From Escherichia phage T2: a stretch of DNA of 64,000 bases. This document shows, piece by piece, positions 10,539 to 62,644 of the stretch. The stretch is from the sequence record NC_054931.1. One strand, written 5' to 3'. The notes under the pieces are model-generated. The model was not told where the DNA came from. It did not search any database and worked only from the letters and a program-made list of their open reading frames with translations. A program made the position numbers and the translations under genes. The stretch's first letter is position 1. Each line of letters begins with the position of its first letter.

Positions 10539-12249
10539 TAACCTTAATTGGTTTGTTGGTGTTGTTGAAGATAGAATGGACCCATTAAAATTAGGTCGTG
10601 TTCGTGTTCGTGTGGTTGGTTTGCATCCACCTCAAAGAGCACAAGGTGATGTAATGGGTATTCCAACTGAAAAATTACCATGGATGTCAGTTATTCAACC
10701 TATAACTTCTGCAGCAATGTCTGGAATTGGGGGCTCCGTTACTGGTCCGGTAGAAGGAACTAGAGTTTATGGTCATTTTTTGGACAAATGGAAAACTAAT
10801 GGAATTGTCCTTGGCACGTATGGTGGAATAGTTCGCGAAAAACCGAATAGACTTGAAGGATTTTCTGACCCAACTGGACAGTATCCTAGACGTCTAGGAA
10901 ATGATACTAACGTACTAAACCAAGGCGGAGAAGTAGGATATGATTCCTCTTCTAACGTTATTCAAGATAGTAACTTAGACACTGCAATAAATCCCGATGA
11001 TAGACCACTATCAGAGATTCCAACCGATGATAATCCAAATATGTCAATGGCTGAAATGCTTCGCCGTGATGAAGGATTAAGATTAAAAGTTTATTGGGAT
11101 ACCGAAGGATATCCGACAATTGGTATTGGTCATCTTATCATGAAACAGCCAGTTCGTGATATGGCTCAAATTAATAAAGTTTTATCAAAACAAGTTGGTC
11201 GTGAAATTACTGGAAACCCAGGTTCTATTACGATGGAAGAGGCGACGACTTTATTTGAGCGTGATTTGGCTGATATGCAACGTGACATTAAATCGCATTC
11301 TAAAGTAGGACCAGTCTGGCAAGCTGTCAACCGTTCTCGTCAAATGGCGTTAGAAAATATGGCATTTCAGATGGGTGTTGGTGGTGTAGCTAAATTTAAC
11401 ACAATGTTAACTGCTATGTTAGCAGGAGATTGGGAAAAAGCATATAAAGCCGGTCGTGATTCATTGTGGTATCAACAAACAAAAGGCCGTGCATCCCGTG
11501 TTACTATGATTATTCTTACGGGAAATTTGGAATCATATGGTGTTGAAGTGAAAACCCCAGCTAGGTCTCTATCAGCAATGGCTGCTACTGTAGCTAAATC
11601 TTCTGACCCTGCTGACACTCCTATTCCAAATGACTCGAGAATTTTATTCAAAGAACCAGTTTCTTCATATAAAGGTGAATATCCTTATGTGCATACAATG
11701 GAAACTGAAAGCGGACATATTCAGGAATTTGATGATACCCCTGGGCAAGAACGATACAGATTAGTTCATCCAACTGGAACTTATGAAGAAGTATCACCGT
11801 CAGGAAGAAGAACAAGAAAAACTGTTGATAATTTGTATGATATAACCAACGCTGATGGTAATTTTTTGGTAGCCGGTGATAAAAAGACTAACGTCGGTGG
11901 ATCAGAAATTTATTACAACATGGATAATCGTCTTCACCAGATAGATGGAAGCAATACAATATTTGTGCGTGGCGATGAAACTAAGACAGTTGAAGGTAAT
12001 GGAACTATCCTAGTTAAAGGTAATGTTACTATTGTAGTTGAAGGTAATGCTGACATTACAGTTAAAGGAGATGCTACCACTTTAGTTGAAGGTAATCAAA
12101 CTAATACAGTAAATGGAAATCTTTCTTGGAAAGTTGCTGGGACAGTTGATTGGGACGTTGGTGGTGATTGGACAGAAAAAATGGCATCTATGAGTTCTAT
12201 TTCATCTGGTCAATACACAATTGATGGATCGAGGATTGACATTGGCTAA
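10522..12249 (+). CDS. 5: baseplate hub / tail-associated lysozyme and cell-puncturing spike gp5
   Basis: 575 aa; N-terminus MEMISNNLNWFVGVVEDRMDPLKLGRVRV, lysozyme domain, C-terminal VEGN beta-helix repeats; matches T4 gp5. Confidence 0.95.
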   Translation: MEMISNNLNWFVGVVEDRMDPLKLGRVRVRVVGLHPPQRAQGDVMGIPTEKLPWMSVIQPITSAAMSGIGGSVTGPVEGTRVYGHFLDKWKTNGIVLGTYGGIVREKPNRLEGFSDPTGQYPRRLGNDTNVLNQGGEVGYDSSSNVIQDSNLDTAINPDDRPLSEIPTDDNPNMSMAEMLRRDEGLRLKVYWDTEGYPTIGIGHLIMKQPVRDMAQINKVLSKQVGREITGNPGSITMEEATTLFERDLADMQRDIKSHSKVGPVWQAVNRSRQMALENMAFQMGVGGVAKFNTMLTAMLAGDWEKAYKAGRDSLWYQQTKGRASRVTMIILTGNLESYGVEVKTPARSLSAMAATVAKSSDPADTPIPNDSRILFKEPVSSYKGEYPYVHTMETESGHIQEFDDTPGQERYRLVHPTGTYEEVSPSGRRTRKTVDNLYDITNADGNFLVAGDKKTNVGGSEIYYNMDNRLHQIDGSNTIFVRGDETKTVEGNGTILVKGNVTIVVEGNADITVKGDATTLVEGNQTNTVNGNLSWKVAGTVDWDVGGDWTEKMASMSSISSGQYTIDGSRIDIG

Positions 12250-12577
12250 TATACTTCCAATGAGCGCTGATTTAGGAGAATCCATGGAAGGTTCTTCTAT
12301 CGACGTCACCTTTACCGCTCAATTAGAAACAGGTGAAACGTTAGTATCTATAAATATAACTAGTTACGAAGAAACTCCTGGAGTTTTAGTAGAAGAAAAT
12401 CGCTTATATGGAACATATGAATCTGTATTTGGTTTCGGAAATGACGCGTTGAAATATCGTTTAGGCGATGAATTTAAAACTGCTGCTTCATGGGAAGAAC
12501 TTCCTACTGATTCTATACTCAGTTGTATTTGTGGAAAGCTCCTCAAAACCTCCAGAAGACATTCACTTACGAAGTAA
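12221..12577 (+). CDS. 5.1-like ORF, N-terminal frame
   Basis: 118-aa track ORF overlapping the gene 5 end; its last 67 nt overlap a second open frame (see next feature). Confidence 0.45.
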   Translation: MMDRGLTLANILPMSADLGESMEGSSIDVTFTAQLETGETLVSINITSYEETPGVLVEENRLYGTYESVFGFGNDALKYRLGDEFKTAASWEELPTDSILSCICGKLLKTSRRHSLTK

Positions 12578-12777
12578 CATTAATATATGACTACCAAGAA
12601 CAAAGTGAATCTGGAGGTTCTGGCAGTAATTCTAGGTCATCTTCTGATACTACTGAACCGACAGATCCTCCTGCTCCAGTAAGAAAAACTCTAGTTAAAA
12701 ATTATACTAAAACTATAGTTGGAAATTGGAGTCGTTGGGCTAATAAATTGAGAAGCTATGTGTATGAGAGGCCATAA
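12511..12777 (+). other. open frame lacking an ATG, probable C-terminal continuation of the 5.1-like gene after a -1 frame change
   Basis: Frame opens right after a TGA at 12508-12510, has no Met codon, ends in ATAAATG overlap with gene 5.4 start. Confidence 0.35.
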
Positions 12778-38500: not shown

Positions 38501-38515
38501 TCTTTGACGATTTAA

Positions 38516-38540
38516 GGGACCTTCGGGTCCCTTTAGTTGT
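38516..38540 (+). terminator. hairpin GGGACC-TTCG-GGTCCC plus T-run after gene 23
   Basis: Perfect stem with TTCG tetraloop followed by TTTAGTTGTTTTT. Confidence 0.6.
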
Positions 38541-38548
38541 TTTTATGG

Positions 38549-38556
38549 TATAAATA
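38549..38556 (+). promoter_or_regulatory. late promoter TATAAATA (gene 24)
   Basis: Exact consensus ~30 bp upstream of gene 24 ATG. Confidence 0.6.
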
Positions 38557-38583
38557 AATCATATAAACCAAAAGGAAAGCGCA

Positions 38584-39867
38584 ATGGCTAAAATCAACGA
38601 ACTTCTGCGCGAATCAACCACAACGAATAGCAACTCAATCGGTCGCCCAAATCTCGTTGCTTTGACTCGCGCTACCACTAAATTAATATATTCTGACATT
38701 GTAGCAACGCAAAGAACTAATCAACCTGTTGCTGCTTTTTATGGTATCAAATACCTTAACCCAGACAACGAATTTACATTTAAAACTGGTGCTACTTATG
38801 CTGGCGAAGCTGGATATGTAGACCGAGAACAAATCACAGAATTAACAGAAGAGTCTAAATTAACTCTCAATAAAGGCGATTTATTCAAATATAATAATAT
38901 CGTTTATAAAGTATTAGAAGATACACCATTTGCTGATATTGAAGAAAGCGACTTAGAGCTGGCTCTTCAGATTGCAATTGTTCTTTTAAAGGTTCGTCTA
39001 TTTTCTGACGCAGCGTCAACAAGCAAATTTGAAAGCTCTGATAGTGAAATTGCGGATGCTAGATTCCAGATTAATAAATGGCAAACCGCGGTTAAATCTC
39101 GTAAACTTAAAACTGGCATCACAGTTGAATTAGCGCAAGATTTAGAAGCAAATGGATTCGATGCTCCTAATTTCTTGGAAGATTTGCTTGCAACTGAAAT
39201 GGCAGATGAAATCAATAAAGATATTCTGCAATCTTTGATTACAGTGTCAAAACGCTATAAAGTTACAGGAATTACTGATAGTGGATTCATCGATTTGAGT
39301 TATGCGTCTGCACCTGAAGCTGGTCGTTCATTATACCGAATGGTATGTGAAATTGTTTCGCATATCCAAAAAGAATCAACTTATACAGCAACGTTCTGTG
39401 TTGCTTCTGCTCGTGCCGCTGCGATTCTTGCTGCATCAGGTTGGTTAAAACATAAACCAGAAGATGACAAATATCTTTCACAAAATGCCTACGGGTTATT
39501 AGCTAATGGTTTACCGCTTTATTGCGATACTAACAGCCCATTAGATTATGTAATCGTTGGTGTAGTAGAAAATATCGGTGAAAAAGAAATTGTTGGATCA
39601 ATTTTCTATGCTCCGTATACAGAAGGTCTCGACTTAGATGACCCTGAACATGTAGGCGCATTTAAAGTTGTTGTTGATCCAGAAAGCTTACAACCGTCTA
39701 TCAGTTTATTAGTTAGATATGCTTTATCAGCAAATCCTTATACCGTAGCAAAAGATGAAAAAGAAGCAAGAGTAATTGATGGTGGAGACATGGATAAAAT
39801 GGCGGGTCGTTCAGATTTGTCTGTTTTATTAGGTGTTAAATTACCAAAAATTATTATTGATGAATAA
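38584..39867 (+). CDS. 24: capsid vertex protein gp24
   Basis: 427 aa, matches T4 gp24. Confidence 0.95.
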   Translation: MAKINELLRESTTTNSNSIGRPNLVALTRATTKLIYSDIVATQRTNQPVAAFYGIKYLNPDNEFTFKTGATYAGEAGYVDREQITELTEESKLTLNKGDLFKYNNIVYKVLEDTPFADIEESDLELALQIAIVLLKVRLFSDAASTSKFESSDSEIADARFQINKWQTAVKSRKLKTGITVELAQDLEANGFDAPNFLEDLLATEMADEINKDILQSLITVSKRYKVTGITDSGFIDLSYASAPEAGRSLYRMVCEIVSHIQKESTYTATFCVASARAAAILAASGWLKHKPEDDKYLSQNAYGLLANGLPLYCDTNSPLDYVIVGVVENIGEKEIVGSIFYAPYTEGLDLDDPEHVGAFKVVVDPESLQPSISLLVRYALSANPYTVAKDEKEARVIDGGDMDKMAGRSDLSVLLGVKLPKIIIDE

Positions 39868-39873
39868 AACAAA

Positions 39874-39898
39874 GGGACCGAAAGGTCCCTTTTTATTT
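39874..39898. terminator. bidirectional terminator between convergent genes 24 and rnlB
   Basis: Hairpin GGGACC-GAAA-GGTCCC flanked by T-runs on both strands. Confidence 0.65.
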
Positions 39899-39909
39899 AG
39901 CTCACCAAC

Positions 39910-40897
39910 TCAATCCAAGCTGGACGAAGTACATCTTACCATTTTAACTAATTCCTTTTTAATCAAAGAAGGATTATCTGCTTGAGTTAGAGTAATACCT
40001 TCACGAGAAGTTTCTTCCAAAATATCTTGAACAGTTAGCCCCATCACCTTTCCAAAATCCTTTGGACCAATTTCGCCAATTTTAGAAATAACGTTATTTA
40101 CACGGTTCAGTGTAACGTAACAAGCTAAAATTCCCACCAATTTGTTATCAGCTTCTGATAGTTCAACTTTAGCTTTAATAGGCTTATCAGACTTTTTCTT
40201 TTCACTAAATTTGGAATTCTTGCATTTAATTGCTACACGATTTCCATTATGAAGCCAAGAAGGATAACAAGGTTTCAATACATATCCTTCAGCAGTAAAT
40301 ACTTCGCCTTTTGCTTCGGCATTCCAAACGCATTTATTTGCATCAACTAATCCAGCATGGTCTACTGTAAAATTATAATCTTGGACGACAGAATCTAAAT
40401 CATTTGGCAATTTAATAAGCTCTTCAAATTTACCGCGACCTAAAAGTGGAGCAATTTTAAATTTAAATGTATTACAGAATGATTCCATCATATAATCATC
40501 AACATAAGTCACATCACCACTTTCTGTAGTGACAATAATGTCAAATACATAAAAATCTTTATCGCCATAATCAACATTCTTCTGAATGCCAGGTCCAGCG
40601 AATTCGCCAAAGACTTGATAAGATACAACCGCTGAGGTTTCCATAATATCTTGTACTGCTTTAATGGAATCAGCGTAATTCTTTAGAATAATTTCATACC
40701 CAAAGAAATCTTCAGCAGGAAGAATCGGTCCAGTACGTTTAGCACAAGTTACTTTATCACGCTCAATAATCAATGAGAAATTTGTGCCGTGAATCTTTTC
40801 ACGAGCTACCCATTCGCCGCCAGTCAATCCCAAGCTGTAAAGTTTTTCAATAAATTTAGAGTTGTAATGATTTTCAAGACTGCTACTTTTTAAACAT
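39910..40897 (-). pseudogene. rnlB: RNA ligase 2 (rnlB) with a frameshift at codons 5-6
   Basis: ATG at 40897 with GAGG Shine-Dalgarno reads MFKK then TAG; the remaining ORF (motif I EKIHGTN onward) is in another frame; ATG-to-body spacing is 2 nt short of a continuous frame. Confidence 0.75.
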
Positions 40898-40906
40898 AAT
40901 TAATCC

Positions 40907-41182
40907 TCAAAATGTAATTTCTAACCAATCACCATCACGCTGATCACTATTGACTTTAAAATTAAATCCTTCTTTTCTCAGCCAATCACCAATTTCTTCA
41001 GTAATCAATTTATCGCGAGCAGTATAATAACTAAAATATGTTTTACCTTGTTCAGCTGCTTTATTAGCAAGTTCCGAAAAATCTTTAATAAAACACTCTA
41101 GCTTAAACTGTTTACTTTTTAATGCTTTTTCGCGTAATTGATTAGCAAAAGATTCATTTTCATAAAGTTCATACTGTTCCAT
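40907..41182 (-). CDS. hypothetical protein (T4 24.2 position)
   Basis: 91-aa track ORF directly upstream of rnlB. Confidence 0.6.
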   Translation of the reverse strand: MEQYELYENESFANQLREKALKSKQFKLECFIKDFSELANKAAEQGKTYFSYYTARDKLITEEIGDWLRKEGFNFKVNSDQRDGDWLEITF

Positions 41183-41473: not shown

Positions 41474-42590
41474 TTATGGATAGGTATAGATGATACCAGT
41501 TTCTAAAGCAGTTTTATGAATGATGTATCCATTACGCGATTCTTGGACATCAACTTCTGGATAGTCTTTCATCATCTTCTGAAGAGTGTAACGATGCAGG
41601 TAGTATTTACTCTGGATCTTCAGTTTTCCAATCTTTACCTTCTTCAGTCATTTTTTGGATTTCATCCATAACCCACCAACCGCACCAGATGTAAGCTGAA
41701 GTACGATGTGGAAGAGGATGAACATAAGGTAATTCACCTTCTGGTTCTGGAGCAACTTTATCAGTTACCTGAACTTGACCTGTTGTTTTAACTGTTTTGC
41801 TATCATAATCAGTAGCAGTAACGACGGCAGTCACTTCAATAGTTTGACTTCCAACAGATGAAGTATCAACGGTATATACATTAGTTGACCCTTCTACAGG
41901 AGAAGAATCTTTCTTCCATGAATAAGTAATTTGCGCTTCTTCTGGAGCATCAGTAACATTAGCAGTAAATGTAGCCGAAGCATCTTGTTGAACGTTAATA
42001 GAAGGAGGAGTCAATGTAACCTGTGGATTCATTGTCTTCTTATTAACCGTTAATGACACTTCATTAGAAGTAACGCTTAGTGCATCATAATCTGTCGCGG
42101 TTACTTGAGCTACACACTTGATTTTTTAACTCCACTTGTAGTTGGAGTATAGCTAAATGTAGAGTTAGTTTCTCCACCAACTTGTGAATCATCTACATAC
42201 CACTGATACGTAGCAGATGCTCCATCAGGTTGAGAAGCTAAGGCAGCAGTAAATTGAACTGGGGTTCCGATTACTCCAGCGTCAGGGCTATTAGGAGTTA
42301 CAGCTAAGGTGGTCGTTTGTGTCTTATTTTGAACTGTGATAGTTGTAGTAGCTTCTGCTGTTTCAGCTTCAGCTTCTGGAATTGTATTTGTTGCAACTAC
42401 TTTAATAGTCTTTTGACCGGCAGGTATAACTAAAAGTTGCTTCAGCTCCATCTTGTGGAACATTATCTACGCTCCAAGCATAGGTAATAGTTCCACCTTC
42501 AGTTTGACCACTGGGTGCAGCAGTAAACTGCTTGGTTTCATCAATAACCCCTGTCGGTGTTTTAGGAGTTATATCAACTGTAAAAGTCAT
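41474..42590 (-). pseudogene. hoc: hoc (highly immunogenic outer capsid protein) disrupted by three frame changes
   Basis: Hoc sequence is recoverable as four consecutive pieces in different frames: MTFTVDITPKTPTG...ATFSY / AGQKTIKVVATNT...TPTTSGVK / KCVAQVTATDYD...WKTEDPE / YYLHRYTLQKMMKDYPEV...IIYTYP. Confidence 0.8.
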
Positions 42591-42599
42591 AAGTTATCC

Positions 42600-43301: not shown

Positions 43302-43330
43302 TAGATATATTTATTACATGGTATTTAGAC

Positions 43331-44842
43331 ATGACTGACATTAAAGTACATTTTTATGATTTTAGTCACGTGAGAATTGATTGTGAAGAAAGTACATTTC
43401 ATGAACTCCGTGATTTCTTTAGCTTTGAAGCTGATGGGTATCGTTTTAATCCGAAATACAAATATGGCCACTGGGATGGACGAATCCGTCTTTTAGATTA
43501 TAATCGTCTTCTTCCATTCGGCTTAGTCGGGCAAATTAAAAAGTTCTGTGATAATTTTGGCTATAAAGCCTGGATTGACCCACAAATTAACGAAAAAGAA
43601 GAATTATCAAGAAAAGATTTTGATGAATGGCTTTCTAAATTAGAAATCTATTCAGGAAATAAAAGAATCGAACCACACTGGTATCAAAAAGATGCAGTGT
43701 TCGAAGGATTAGTTAATCGTCGTAGAATTCTTAATCTTCCAACATCTGCAGGTAAATCTTTAATTCAAGCTTTGCTTGCGCGATATTATTTGGAAAATTA
43801 TGAAGGTAAAATTCTTATCATTGTTCCAACAACTGCTTTAACAACTCAGATGGCTGATGACTTTGTTGACTATCGTTTATTCAGTCATGCAATGATAAAG
43901 AAAATTGGTGGCGGAGCATCAAAAGATGATAAATATAAAAATGATGCACCAGTCGTTGTTGGTACATGGCAAACTGTAGTTAAACAACCGAAAGAATGGT
44001 TCTCACAGTTTGGAATGATGATGAATGATGAATGCCATCTTGCTACAGGAAAAAGTATTTCATCTATCATATCAGGTTTAAATAACTGCATGTTCAAATT
44101 CGGTTTGTCTGGTTCATTACGTGATGGCAAAGCTAATATCATGCAGTATGTTGGAATGTTTGGTGAAATATTTAAGCCAGTAACGACTTCTAAATTAATG
44201 GAAGATGGACAAGTAACTGAGCTAAAAATTAATAGTATTTTTCTTCGCTATCCAGATGAGTTCACTACTAAATTAAAGGGAAAAACTTACCAAGAAGAAA
44301 TAAAAATTATTACTGGGCTCAGTAAAAGAAATAAATGGATCGCTAAATTAGCTATTAAGCTTGCGCAAAAAGATGAAAACGCTTTTGTCATGTTTAAACA
44401 TGTATCGCATGGTAAAGCTATTTTCGATTTAATTAAAAATGAATACGATAAAGTTTATTACGTATCAGGGGAAGTTGATACCGAAACCCGCAATATAATG
44501 AAAACCTTAGCTGAAAATGGTAAAGGAATAATTATAGTAGCTAGTTATGGTGTATTTTCTACTGGTATTTCAGTTAAAAATCTGCATCACGTTGTTTTAG
44601 CGCACGGTGTTAAATCAAAAATCATTGTATTACAAACAATCGGTCGTGTATTACGTAAGCATGGTTCTAAGACAATAGCAACCGTCTGGGACCTCATAGA
44701 TGATTGTGGTGTTAAGCCAAAATCTGCTAATACGAAAAAGAAATATGTTCATTTGAACTATCTTTTAAAACACGGCATTGATCGTATTCAGCGCTACGCA
44801 GATGAAAAATTTAATTACGTAATGAAAACAGTTAATTTATAA
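43331..44842 (+). CDS. uvsW: UvsW RNA-DNA and DNA-DNA helicase
   Basis: 503 aa; Walker A PTSAGKS, DECH box; matches T4 UvsW. Confidence 0.95.
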   Translation: MTDIKVHFYDFSHVRIDCEESTFHELRDFFSFEADGYRFNPKYKYGHWDGRIRLLDYNRLLPFGLVGQIKKFCDNFGYKAWIDPQINEKEELSRKDFDEWLSKLEIYSGNKRIEPHWYQKDAVFEGLVNRRRILNLPTSAGKSLIQALLARYYLENYEGKILIIVPTTALTTQMADDFVDYRLFSHAMIKKIGGGASKDDKYKNDAPVVVGTWQTVVKQPKEWFSQFGMMMNDECHLATGKSISSIISGLNNCMFKFGLSGSLRDGKANIMQYVGMFGEIFKPVTTSKLMEDGQVTELKINSIFLRYPDEFTTKLKGKTYQEEIKIITGLSKRNKWIAKLAIKLAQKDENAFVMFKHVSHGKAIFDLIKNEYDKVYYVSGEVDTETRNIMKTLAENGKGIIIVASYGVFSTGISVKNLHHVVLAHGVKSKIIVLQTIGRVLRKHGSKTIATVWDLIDDCGVKPKSANTKKKYVHLNYLLKHGIDRIQRYADEKFNYVMKTVNL

Positions 44843-53746: not shown

Positions 53747-55803
53747 TACATTTTGAACTTTTTAGACATTCCGTTGATGTTAACCAAAGAAGCTAATATT
53801 TGAGAAACTTCGTTTTCCTCTTCTTTTGATTCTTCTACAAGGAATTGATTAAATCCAGCCATTGGACGAACTTCACCAGTTTCCATTAAATGGTCTCCAT
53901 CATATACTGATTCTTCTAATTGTTCAGAAGGAGGAACGATTGTACCTTCGATTAGATACTTGTTATAAGCAGTTTCTTTCATAAAGTACGTACTTACTTT
54001 ATTAATCTTCAGTAAAATTCCACGCGGTAGAATAACTTCAGCTTCTGATGGAAATCCTGATAAATGACCTGGAACGATAACTTTGATTCGCTCAGCTCCT
54101 TTAATTACCATACCCACGCTAGTTTCAGCATCTTCATTAGCATATGTAGAATGACTACCCATATGCATCAAATCTTCTGCATCAACGGAACCTTCTCCTT
54201 CTCCAGAAAATACTGCACCGGAATCATCTAGAGCCATATAGTTTTTACCATGCTCGCCAAAGATATTTGGTTTAAGTGATGTCGATACGAAGTTCTTGAA
54301 ATAGAACATTTTGTTTTCAATGTTGTGACGCAAAGTTTTAAAGGTAACTTCTTGTCCGCGATAAAGCGTAGTTCCTGGAGGAAGAACTGAACCTTTAGCG
54401 AATGCAGAATCCAACGTCTCGATGTGCTTAATAGCACGTTCCATATATTCTTCACGGGTAGAATCTGGTTTACCCAAAAGGAACGAGTTCATTTCAACAT
54501 ATGAATCTGCACAATAATCTTCAATTACATCAGACTCAGCCTGAGTCAGTCCTTTTGGAGTTACTTCAGTGCTTGCATATTCATATGCCTGGGCAGCAGA
54601 TTCATTAATCAATTTATAAATGCCATTCATGACAAATTGAATAATAACTGTCTTTTCATCTGGCGTAGCTTTAGAACCTTTAACCAAATCATTGATAATT
54701 TTCTTAATAACATCAAAGCTATTAGAAATATTAATATCAGCAAGATCACTTAAAATTTTATCAGTTTTATAATCAAAGAATTCTTTATTCTTTAAATATT
54801 CTTGAGAACCTTGATATGTTATATCGCTCTGTAACTTGATAGATGGATCACGTAAACGTGCATGGGCTAATGCAATATGATTTCGGAAGTTTTCTAGTTC
54901 ATAATCGCTAGATTTAAAACGAGAAGCACTTCTCATACCACCGATAGCTCCTTTGCTGAAGTTTGAACCAATCTGAATAACGCCAGAGTTCATTGGTCCT
55001 TCTGCTTTATATACCGGAACTTTAGATTCAAACTCTTGATATTTCTTGGCAGCGAAGCTATCACCCTGAAGTGAAGCATCGACAGTAGAATATTGAGCTT
55101 GTGCTGCTAATCGACGACTAATTTTAGTTTTCTGAATAACCGCTTGGTCAGTACGTTTATCATTTTCTAAAGCAATAGAAGCAGCAACAGCGACAGCTTT
55201 AGGAACAGCATCACCTGTTTTAACATCTACATAAACATCACCGACCTTCGATTCAACTTTTGCGAATAACTCAGTTGAAATAGGAGGTACACCTGGAATG
55301 TCTTCTAAATTGGCATTTTTACGGTAAACCATAATATATGCATACTTTTTATCATAGTCCCAGATTTCCTTTAAAAGAACATATCGACCTGCTCCTTTAG
55401 TACGTACTAAACGGTCAGCAATAACTTGCATTTGACGAGCTGCGCCATTTGTTTTACTTTTTAGTACGCGGAATAAGCATGCGTCGATTTTATACTGTTT
55501 CATTGTTTGAAGAGCAGTATCAAAAACAGCATTAATGACGCCAATTGGATTTCCACCCAAGTTTCTAAGCTTAACCAGCGATAATTTCTCGTTGACACCT
55601 ATCATTACGATATGCATCATTTTATCGCCTGGCTTAACGTTTTTATTTGTATCACCACCAGAGGTGTATGTACAAAATCTAAATCCAGGAAGCACGCTTT
55701 CTTCGCCGGCTTGAATAGCAAAAATTTGTGGTATTTTATGCTTAGGATTTAAGTTAACAACCGGCGCCGAAGCGCCGTCAAATAATTCTGTAATAAGTTC
55801 CAT
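53746..55803 (-). CDS. Alt-like ADP-ribosyltransferase, paralog B
   Basis: 685 aa; N-terminus MELITELFDG (packaging/cleavage signal); R-S-E ART motifs (LYRGQ, STSL, EAEVILPRG) in C-terminal domain. Confidence 0.85.
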   Translation of the reverse strand: MELITELFDGASAPVVNLNPKHKIPQIFAIQAGEESVLPGFRFCTYTSGGDTNKNVKPGDKMMHIVMIGVNEKLSLVKLRNLGGNPIGVINAVFDTALQTMKQYKIDACLFRVLKSKTNGAARQMQVIADRLVRTKGAGRYVLLKEIWDYDKKYAYIMVYRKNANLEDIPGVPPISTELFAKVESKVGDVYVDVKTGDAVPKAVAVAASIALENDKRTDQAVIQKTKISRRLAAQAQYSTVDASLQGDSFAAKKYQEFESKVPVYKAEGPMNSGVIQIGSNFSKGAIGGMRSASRFKSSDYELENFRNHIALAHARLRDPSIKLQSDITYQGSQEYLKNKEFFDYKTDKILSDLADINISNSFDVIKKIINDLVKGSKATPDEKTVIIQFVMNGIYKLINESAAQAYEYASTEVTPKGLTQAESDVIEDYCADSYVEMNSFLLGKPDSTREEYMERAIKHIETLDSAFAKGSVLPPGTTLYRGQEVTFKTLRHNIENKMFYFKNFVSTSLKPNIFGEHGKNYMALDDSGAVFSGEGEGSVDAEDLMHMGSHSTYANEDAETSVGMVIKGAERIKVIVPGHLSGFPSEAEVILPRGILLKINKVSTYFMKETAYNKYLIEGTIVPPSEQLEESVYDGDHLMETGEVRPMAGFNQFLVEESKEEENEVSQILASLVNINGMSKKFKM

Positions 55804-55806
55804 GAT

Positions 55807-57903
55807 TTATCCTTGAACGAACTTGTAAGGCATGTTTGTAATATCTATGCAAGACGCAATAATTCCGAGAGATGATTCTACTTTCTGTTTAACATTTGAT
55901 GAAACAAATGATGCAAAGTCAACTCTGTCTTCTATTTCAATATCACCTGTCATTGCAACTACTTCGCCGGTTTCCATTAAACGGTCTCCGTCATAGATTA
56001 CCGATTCGGTGAGTTCTTCTGTGGTCATAACTTCAGCTTGAATGAGTTTTGTATTATTAGACGTGGTTCCGTCATTATTAGAAGCATCAGTTATTTTATT
56101 AACTTTGACCATCAATCCGCGCGGTAGAATAACTTCAGCTTCTGTTGCTATTCCGAGACTTCCTGGATATACAACATTAACTTTATGAGCTCCATCAATT
56201 GCCCATCCTATTTGAACTTTAACGTATTCAGGATTTTCTTTATACGCTCTTATTTCGTTTGGATTAATAGTTATTCCTTCTTCATTTTTATCAACTGTTA
56301 ATTCATTGCGAGCTTCTGGTTCTAAAAGACCAATACCAGCATGTGTAATTCCAAAACGTCCAAAAATGATAGGAGTTAAAGAAGTAGATACAAAATTTCT
56401 GAAATAGAACACTTTATTTTTAACTAGCGCTTCGTATATAGGAGCAGTCATACTTTGAGCACGATAAACTGTAATGCCTTCCGGTATGCGGTCACCATTT
56501 TCAAAAGCTGAATCTAAATTATTTATAGCAGATTCAATTTCTTTTTCACTCATTACATCATATCGTTCTGGATTGTAACGACCTAAAAGAAGATTATTAA
56601 TGTCTGTATATCCTGAACCACAATACTCTCTAATACCGCGCTTTTGTGATGGTGTATATTTAGAACCATCACAAGCAATAGTAATATCAATCATTGGACC
56701 AGCACCAATTCCAGAAAAACTATAAATCATTCGTTTGAGGAATTTAGTTTTTGCTGCATTCCAGGCATTTTTAGTTATTTCTCCCCAGACTTCATCTGGC
56801 TGCCCTTTACGAGTTTTATTATGTTTATCAAGCCAATTATCTTTATATTCTTCAAAGAATTGATTGACAGCTGCCGCGTATTTCTCTAAACATTTTATTG
56901 AAGTAGTTGGTTCATTTTTAATCGCGTTAAAAATTACATCTTTAATTTTTTCAGAAACTTCATCAACCTCACTTTTTGAAAAGAATTTATAGTCATAGTG
57001 AAGTTCATTCGCAGTTCCTTCGGCAATAATTTTTGCTGCCTTTGTTTTAGAAGCTAATGAATTAATTCCAATTTTCATTTCTTCTGCTTCGGGAATTAAA
57101 GGAGCGGTAGCAGGCTTATTGAAATTAGCTGCGGTAGATTCATACTTCTGGAATAATTCACTTTCAAATCTAGAAGATTCCAATGATTGACTTTGCGCAA
57201 TTGCTCTACGGGAAATTTTAACTTTAACGATTACAGCTTGGTCAGTACGTTTATCATTTTCTTGTGCAATAGATGCTGCAATTGCCTCGTTTTTAGTTAC
57301 TTGAGCTCCAGTATCTTTATTGATATAAACATCACCGACCTTCGATTCAACTTTAGTAAAGAGCTCGGTACTAATTTCCGGAACTCCTGGAATGTCTTCT
57401 AGTGATACATTTTTGCGATGTATAAGAATATATGCATACTTTTTATCATAATCCCAGAGTTCCTTAAGAAGGACGTATCTGCCACCTGAACGACTACGGA
57501 TAAGTCTATCAGCAATAACTTGAATTTGTCGAGCTTGACCAGCAGTTTTAGACTTAAGAATACGAAGCATACAAGCATCAATTTTATACTGACGCATTGT
57601 TTGCATTGCAACAGTAAAAACTGAATTGATATAATTAATTGGGCTTGGACCAAGACCTTTTAATTTAGCAATTGAACCTTTAGCAGTTAATGTAAAAGGA
57701 ACAATATGCATCATTTTATCGCCCATTTTTAAATCGCGATTAGTATCACCTCCAGATGTATAGGTACATAAACGAAAGCCTGGTTGTTCAATTGCATCAT
57801 CAACATGAACTGAAAAAATTTGTGGTATTTTCTTCTTTGGATTTAAGTTTGTAATCGGAAGAGTAGTATCTTCGTCAAATAATTCTGTAATGAGTTCCAT
57901 CAT
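55807..57903 (-). CDS. alt: Alt-like ADP-ribosyltransferase, paralog A (probable start at second Met, 57900)
   Basis: 697-698 aa; N-terminus (M)MELITELFDEDTT; ART motifs VYRAQ, STSL, EAEVILPRG. Confidence 0.85.
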   Translation of the reverse strand: MMELITELFDEDTTLPITNLNPKKKIPQIFSVHVDDAIEQPGFRLCTYTSGGDTNRDLKMGDKMMHIVPFTLTAKGSIAKLKGLGPSPINYINSVFTVAMQTMRQYKIDACMLRILKSKTAGQARQIQVIADRLIRSRSGGRYVLLKELWDYDKKYAYILIHRKNVSLEDIPGVPEISTELFTKVESKVGDVYINKDTGAQVTKNEAIAASIAQENDKRTDQAVIVKVKISRRAIAQSQSLESSRFESELFQKYESTAANFNKPATAPLIPEAEEMKIGINSLASKTKAAKIIAEGTANELHYDYKFFSKSEVDEVSEKIKDVIFNAIKNEPTTSIKCLEKYAAAVNQFFEEYKDNWLDKHNKTRKGQPDEVWGEITKNAWNAAKTKFLKRMIYSFSGIGAGPMIDITIACDGSKYTPSQKRGIREYCGSGYTDINNLLLGRYNPERYDVMSEKEIESAINNLDSAFENGDRIPEGITVYRAQSMTAPIYEALVKNKVFYFRNFVSTSLTPIIFGRFGITHAGIGLLEPEARNELTVDKNEEGITINPNEIRAYKENPEYVKVQIGWAIDGAHKVNVVYPGSLGIATEAEVILPRGLMVKVNKITDASNNDGTTSNNTKLIQAEVMTTEELTESVIYDGDRLMETGEVVAMTGDIEIEDRVDFASFVSSNVKQKVESSLGIIASCIDITNMPYKFVQG

Positions 57904-57923
57904 ATCCTCTCTAGTGTTTATTC

Positions 57924-62356: not shown

Positions 62357-62644
62357 TATAAATTCTCTTTTAAACGAAAATGCAGGACTTATTGGCATTG
62401 CCTGCGAAAGCCCTCAAAGGGGTACTTAGGTTTTGAATATTTACCGACAGGATAACCATAAACCCGTCATCATACCACCAAGACTTACACAGATAACACT
62501 TTTCTGACGCATGATAGTAACATTCAAGAGGTACACCGTAAAACTGCCGGGGTCTTAAAACTATAATGATTCGCAAATCATTAATCAGACAGTTCGACGG
62601 CTCCTCGATTTTAGCTCACACTAAGGCAGTGAATCTCCAATAAA

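Follow-up and report, generated by a model that had tools for sequence, protein, structure and literature searches.

Two 2-bp deletions disrupt the RNA ligase 2 gene of Escherichia phage T2 and leave a fixed, mis-annotated pseudogene

Few RNA ligases have been characterised as well as RNA ligase 2 (Rnl2) of phage T4, which also serves as a standard reagent in the laboratory. It is encoded by rnlB (gp24.1; PDB entries 2HVQ, 2HVR, 2HVS and 1S68), an intact gene located between gene 24.2 and the terminator of gene 24. In T2 itself, hoc is another accessory gene that has been lost. The loss of this gene has a known structural phenotype, and capsids without Hoc are said to have been observed in T2 by Ishii and Yanagida in the 1970s; for the loss of rnlB, in contrast, no phenotype has been described. 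A further type of frameshifted phage gene is represented by the contingency loci, in which homopolymers of at least 6 bp undergo reversible frameshifts (bioRxiv 10.1101/2025.10.21.683753).

Here, the rnlB locus of T2 is analysed within a stretch of 64,000 nucleotides (NC_054931.1), referred to as the window. On the basis of its sequence, the window can be assigned to phage T2 and the locus to rnlB (gene 24.1, RNA ligase 2). A megablast search with positions 39850-40960 yielded six records that match at 100% over all 1111 bases: the Escherichia phage T2 genomes MH751506, AP018813, PV958097, PV648363 and PV648364, and Enterobacteria phage SV76 (OM339528), assigned to Tequatrovirus T2. All other relatives among the matches listed, T4 included, align over 1115 bases, which makes T2 4 bases shorter. 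The gene is found at the same place as in T4, with the same Shine-Dalgarno sequence and the same start, and the two copies share 97% nucleotide identity. Two Pfam domains are recognized in it, RNA_ligase (PF09414; E=4.4e-23, 82.7 bits with a cutoff of 27, model positions 2-170 of 171) and T4_Rnl2_C (PF18043; E=1.5e-23, model positions 2-80 of 82), and both are retrieved at E values of about 1e-23 whether the 307-residue open reading frame or a computationally repaired product of 334 residues is used. The structure 2HVQ of T4 Rnl2 aligns end to end with this repaired product (E=5e-226) with 2 substitutions, M149I and R217H, over the 334 residues. The domain matches and the structural alignment, which greatly exceed what chance would produce, bear out the identification as rnlB that had been made in a first-pass annotation of the window.

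In its domains and in motif I, the T2 gene resembles an Rnl2-type ligase. The nucleotidyltransferase domain, the motif I lysine (KxxG; Lys35 in KIHGTN, encoded in the body frame and invariant in 34 homologues) and the C-terminal domain are all present. What is absent is a continuous frame running from MFxKY to RxxWxELxS, as it occurs in 33 of 35 IMG/VR homologues and in 488 GenBank relatives. Whereas T4 rnlB is intact, the T2 copy is broken by a TAG at codon 5 and by a frameshift after codon 321, so that the full enzyme is not encodable. Because the continuous reading frame, the decisive property of a functional member, is lacking, T2 rnlB is counted as a pseudogene; it belongs to the Rnl2-type family by descent, yet not as a functional member.

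The gene is read on the minus strand. The Shine-Dalgarno sequence GAGG (40905-40908) lies 7 nt 5' of the ATG, as in T4 and phage AugustSocin, and the stop codon TGA of gene 24.2 (40909-40907, minus strand) overlaps it. From the ATG (40897-40895), the minus strand reads ATG TTT AAA AAG TAG (40883-40897), a vestigial start that specifies MFKK and is closed by the TAG at 40885-40883. Base-level alignment with T4 (MT984581) and AugustSocin (MZ501052) places a 2-bp deletion at 40883-40886, where the ancestral G-TATA-GC has become G-TA-GC; T4 reads AAGTATAGC where the window reads AAGTAGC, with 2 bases absent. By this event, which is a plain slippage of a TA dinucleotide, the Tyr5 codon is lost, the frame is shifted and the TAG is created. 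The body of the gene follows in a second frame (39937-40884, minus strand). It opens at AGC 40884-40882, corresponding to the ancestral Ser6, extends over 316 ancestral codons to Val321, and contains, besides the nucleotidyltransferase domain, the greater part of the Rnl2 C-terminal domain, as indicated by translation, PF09414, PF18043 and 2HVQ. From the translation and the alignment of 34 homologues, motif I (KIHGTN) is assigned to 40780-40797, preceded by a glutamate codon (E-KIHGTN, 40800-40780, minus strand), and the adenylylation residue Lys35 to AAG 40797-40795. These results agree with the first-pass annotation, which had noticed a strong start (GAGG, then ATG at 40897) reading MFKK-TAG, a ligase body continuing in another frame from 40882, and an ATG-to-body spacing 2 nt short of a continuous frame in comparison with the T4 N-terminus; in the T4 alignment that it called for, exactly 2 bases are missing.

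That annotation had proposed one 2-bp deletion at codon 5, which is correct, but a second frameshift near the 3' end was overlooked. In the alignment with T4 and AugustSocin, the ancestral GGT-AC-AAG has been shortened to GGTAAG directly after the Val321 codon (39936-39938, minus strand; GTACAAG to GTAAG at about 39938), with GGTACAAGATG in T4 and GGTAAGATG in the window. As a consequence, 8 unrelated residues, RCTSSSLD, stand in for the 13 ancestral residues 322-334, and this tail ends at a new stop codon, TGA 39912-39910 (39910-39936, minus strand; seen in the sequence, the list of open reading frames and the three-frame translation). Position 39910, previously given as the end of the gene, is actually the stop of the frameshifted tail. 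The ancestral tail and the native stop, TAA 39899-39897, are still recognizable by alignment and three-frame translation (39897-39935, minus strand), but they now lie in the third frame. MFKK and its stop, the body and the native tail thus occupy three different frames, each of them used in turn. The idea that the two deletions compensate each other was rejected, since 4 bp are lost together and the three segments stay in three frames.

On these grounds, T2 rnlB is very probably a fixed, non-functional pseudogene that arose by two independent 2-bp deletions, and we infer with about equal confidence that T2 does not make active Rnl2. Ribosomes loading at the intact GAGG and ATG would synthesize MFKK alone and terminate at the TAG, and the 316 ancestral codons behind it would be left in another frame without a linked start codon. 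The importance of what is lost can be judged from a conservation alignment of T4 Rnl2 and 33 intact IMG/VR homologues (34 sequences, 43-99% identity). Conservation is highest over residues 1-22, with a column mean of 0.84 as compared to 0.74 for the whole protein, and no variation occurs at F2, Y5, E9, N10, N13 and K15. The tail likewise has two invariant residues, R326 and W329, both of which are lost after the second deletion. In an alanine scan of Rnl2 by Nandakumar et al. (2004, J Biol Chem), Tyr5 was reportedly essential.

It is conceivable that the gene has been remodelled instead, and that a shortened enzyme with some ligase or adenylyltransferase activity is made from the internal TTG that corresponds to the ancestral Leu23 (40831-40833, minus strand). 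This codon is the start of the single open reading frame that a mechanical list reports at rnlB (39910-40833, 307 residues) and of the coding sequence of the same length in MH751506. The 307-residue frame retains Lys35, all nucleotidyltransferase motifs and both Pfam domains (E of about 1e-23), and its body displays no relaxed constraint. Furthermore, steps 1 and 3 can be carried out by the N-terminal domain of T4 Rnl2 in isolation (PMC3884662), so that some chemistry could survive a defect restricted to the C-terminal tail. Such a product would, however, miss the most conserved N-terminal segment in addition to the conserved C-terminal tail: residues 1-22 are dropped, and with them all six of the invariant positions mentioned above. 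None of the 33 intact homologues starts downstream of residue 1-2 or of the conserved MFxKY. The only start-like codon close to the TAG is another TTG, 9 nt 3' of it; reinitiation there was considered and rejected, as this codon is in the wrong frame and leads to a stop after about 20 codons. Neither TTG is preceded by GGAG, GAGG or AGGA, and the one at Leu23 lacks any Shine-Dalgarno-like sequence. Finally, two lesions in rnlB beside a hoc gene with three lesions are in better accordance with decay than with remodelling. A shortened enzyme is therefore regarded as unlikely, and a pseudogene as the better description.

A second way to rescue the gene would be recoding. On the sequence TTT AAA AAG TAG, tRNA-Lys could re-pair perfectly after moving back by 2 nt, and slippage in the P site is favoured when the A site holds a stop codon. 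A -2 slip on AAAAAG at the TAG would result in a product of normal length in which Tyr5 is replaced by Ser. A -1 slip pairs equally well, however, and leads into a dead-end frame, and the invariant Tyr5 would still be missing from the product of the -2 slip. A second, independent +1 or -2 event would be required at GTA AGA TGT, where there is no slippery sequence. Moreover, the frame is uninterrupted in all 488 non-T2 records, and a conserved recoding signal is thus absent. Because both discontinuities are private to T2 and SV76, T2 rnlB does not seem to be a recoding site, and normal-length synthesis by slippage is highly improbable.

The distribution of the two lesions was determined with short-query searches. 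The first is private to T2 and SV76, being present in 6 of the 494 records that span its junction, and so is the second (6 of 273 records); the undeleted form, visible as a 2-base gap in the alignment, occurs in the 488 other records at the first junction and in the 267 others at the second. Both junctions are identical in all six T2/SV76 records, and these have four different genome lengths and come from different hosts. They are also distinguishable at gene 5.1 (12221-12777, plus strand), which in the window is split into two open reading frames by a 1-bp deletion at about 12515. This deletion is present in MH751506, AP018813, SV76 and a partial record from 2001 (AF448490), and absent in PV958097; its polymorphism indicates that the records represent distinct stocks. 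Sequencing error can be excluded as these distinct records all carry both rnlB lesions. An origin of both lesions as sequencing or assembly artefacts has little in its favour beyond the A5 run that adjoins the first deletion, and nothing else specific points to it. Against it stand the sharing of both lesions by six records that differ at gp5.1 and the nature of the lesions, which are clean 2-bp losses and not homopolymer-length errors; its probability is practically negligible. The earlier view that the lesion is genuine and not a random sequencing error is hence upheld. The first-pass annotation had also considered that relatives might share the same sequence together with a functional alternative start, but none of the 488 non-T2 records has it, and no credible start was found.

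As both rnlB lesions are carried by all stocks that differ at gp5.1, they are older than the divergence of the sequenced T2 stocks. Their fixation also distinguishes them from contingency loci, which T2 resembles in having a gene with a frameshift beside an A-run and in the polymorphism of the gp5.1 lesion between stocks. The sequence contexts in rnlB are A5 with (TA)2 and GTACAAG, and two separate events would need to be reverted. A contingency locus was rejected for rnlB, given that a homopolymer of at least 6 bp is absent at both sites and that the six T2/SV76 records show no polymorphism. Frame breaks in otherwise conserved rnlB genes are also present in two other T4-like genomes from IMG/VR, L037 (3001-3998) and L041 (3001-3985), with a single break near residue 224 and residue 99, respectively. 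These differ from T2 in position, in having one lesion each and in not being replicated in other records, so that sequencing error is possible. They suggest that rnlB is repeatedly lost, or that it is error-prone in assemblies.

Values of dN/dS were calculated by the Nei-Gojobori method for the repaired T2 body and intact close relatives. Among the latter, rnlB is under strong purifying selection (dN/dS 0-0.056); between T4 and AugustSocin, for example, 25 codons differ synonymously and 0 non-synonymously (Nei-Gojobori 26.0 and 0.0). The repaired T2 body gives a dN/dS of 0.02-0.05 against the same relatives. It has no private amino-acid changes and 2 private synonymous changes: in the homologue alignment, L031 also has M149I and L007 has R217H, at columns that vary naturally. 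Relaxed selection, which was suggested when only T4 and AugustSocin were compared, was not upheld with more relatives, and a long-term decay was rejected as T2 lacks private amino-acid changes and has the dN/dS of intact genes. Because the body of the gene is undecayed, its inactivation appears to be recent relative to the synonymous divergence of about 5% from the nearest relative. It should be kept in mind that an undecayed body fits recent inactivation but would equally fit a truncated product that is still selected. Both lesions would have arisen in the T2 lineage, after the split from the nearest sequenced relatives and before the sequenced stocks diverged.

No other gene of its transcription unit separates rnlB from the terminator, and its frameshifts therefore have no polar effect. 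The terminator is a bidirectional intrinsic one (39871-39892) between the convergent genes 24, which ends at 39867, and rnlB. The dispensability of Rnl2 in laboratory propagation and this terminal position would explain why the loss is tolerated. The tRNA-repair pathway of Rnl1 and PseT is kept despite it: T2 has full-length copies of pseT (906 bp) and rnlA (1125 bp), and only the second ligase is lost. The terminator itself is variable. Its loop (39880-39883, 4 nt) is inverted with respect to T4: T2 and L031 have TTTC in the rnlB sense, as against GAAA in T4, AugustSocin, L007 and L009; in distant relatives, GTAA and TTAC are the corresponding pair. This looks like a recurrent inversion polymorphism of the hairpin loop, which would change the transcript that bears the GNRA tetraloop.

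For the wider context, a catalogue of indels relative to T4 was compiled over the whole window, together with a screen at the level of open reading frames. Among the 66 T4 frames of at least 90 residues that have a counterpart in T2, splits are confined to hoc and 5.1; rnlB was not flagged by this screen, being clipped only at its two ends. The remaining indels that are not multiples of three either form compensated pairs, in genes 23 and 54, or are non-coding or near gene ends (including trna.2 and 30.4). This is in line with the statement of the first-pass annotation that the essential genes in the window are intact. That annotation was right about rnlB, but it overlooked the state of the adjacent hoc (41477-42593, minus strand), situated about 0.6 kb upstream of rnlB. 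Relative to T4, hoc is divided into four pieces by deletions of 2 bp (about 41611), 1 bp (about 42124) and 11 bp (about 42426). These lesions are common to the six T2/SV76 records, and GenBank features at this place consist of two or three separate 'Hoc-like' fragments. T2 hoc can therefore be regarded as a multi-lesion pseudogene, and its lesions fit the Hoc-free capsids that have long been known for T2. The two genes are alike in being dispensable accessory genes with several frame-breaking deletions common to all six records. They differ in that hoc is 92.7% identical to its nearest non-T2 relative and broken into four pieces, in comparison to 98% identity for rnlB.

Two further observations concern other parts of the window. 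In the alt, alt.-1 and alt.-2 region (55120-57908), the identity to T4 is 69-80%, with overlapping cross-matches between paralogous segments, and thus far lower than the 95-98% found elsewhere; T2 may accordingly have another alt allele, or another arrangement of this region. In the intergenic region between 30.9 and rIII, a 44-bp insertion relative to T4 is present in T2 (62476-62519), with several 1-bp indels around it.

T2 is also devoid of the homing-endonuclease genes segC, segD and segE of T4. At about 12779, 38511-38572 and 43317-43337, respectively, the alignment with T4 breaks and about 560, 790 and 640 bp are missing. The gp5.1 lesion is situated about 265 bp from the T4 position of segC, and a review from 2010 gives 5.1/5.3 as the SegC target (PMC2988022). 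In light of these genes, an origin of the 2-bp deletions was considered that is compatible with the pseudogene reading. According to this idea, they are scars of GIY-YIG homing endonucleases, formed when 2-nt 3' overhangs were lost before religation and selected for resistance to marker exclusion by relatives that carry seg genes; cleavage-resistant scars would be tolerated only where the target is a non-essential gene. Cleavage by SegB leaves 2-nt 3' overhangs (PMC2330249). Of the five lesions that break the frame between rnlB and hoc inclusive, three are deletions of exactly 2 bp, segD and segE flank this stretch in T4 while T2 has neither, and the gp5.1 lesion adjoins the target region of segC (PMC2988022). 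The known target of SegE is uvsW, however, and not rnlB or hoc, and the target of SegD is not known (PMC2988022). The three 2-bp sites have no evident motif in common, TATA to TA is explained by dinucleotide slippage, and the window contains further 2-bp indels at other places. The private changes in rnlB amount to 2 substitutions and 2 indels, a ratio that is not statistically unusual, and the sample is too small to demonstrate an unusual mutational process; slippage and chance suffice. It is thus very doubtful that the deletions are endonuclease scars, and just as doubtful that the cluster of deletions in dispensable genes (two in rnlB, three in hoc and one in gp5.1, with three of 2 bp) is a record of GIY-YIG attacks by co-infecting relatives rather than of random decay. 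A milder alternative is that the loss of Rnl2 was itself selected in the host background of T2. We regard T2 rnlB as an ordinary event, in which a laboratory phage has lost a dispensable accessory gene by frameshift.

The state of the gene is not reflected in public records. In MH751506, the 307-residue coding sequence from the internal TTG is labelled 'RNA ligase 2', and the shortened frame is likewise called RNA ligase in PV958097, PV648363 and PV648364. SV76 has a 200-residue 'RnlB' and a hypothetical protein of 39 residues, and AP018813 has hypothetical proteins only. A pseudogene flag is attached to none of the rnlB features shown in the public T2 records. An exact-protein look-up in public assemblies located the product in two contigs; the one location shown is MH751506, and independent support is therefore not obtained from it. 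In the literature searched, we found neither a mention of the state of T2 rnlB nor a paper assigning an anti-defence role to Rnl2. T2 rnlB is a genuine, fixed and mis-annotated pseudogene, and the label 'RNA ligase 2' on a truncated reading frame without a pseudogene flag will spread into protein databases.

The strong purifying selection among intact relatives (dN/dS of at most 0.056) indicates that rnlB matters in nature. T2, one of the most widely used model phages, would be naturally null for Rnl2 while keeping Rnl1 and PseT. This offers a ready comparison, in which T2 is set against an rnlB-repaired T2 or against T4 and T6 with panels of defence systems and with wild hosts. The loss of Rnl2 may also be a hidden variable in experiments where T2, T4 and T6 are treated as equivalent.
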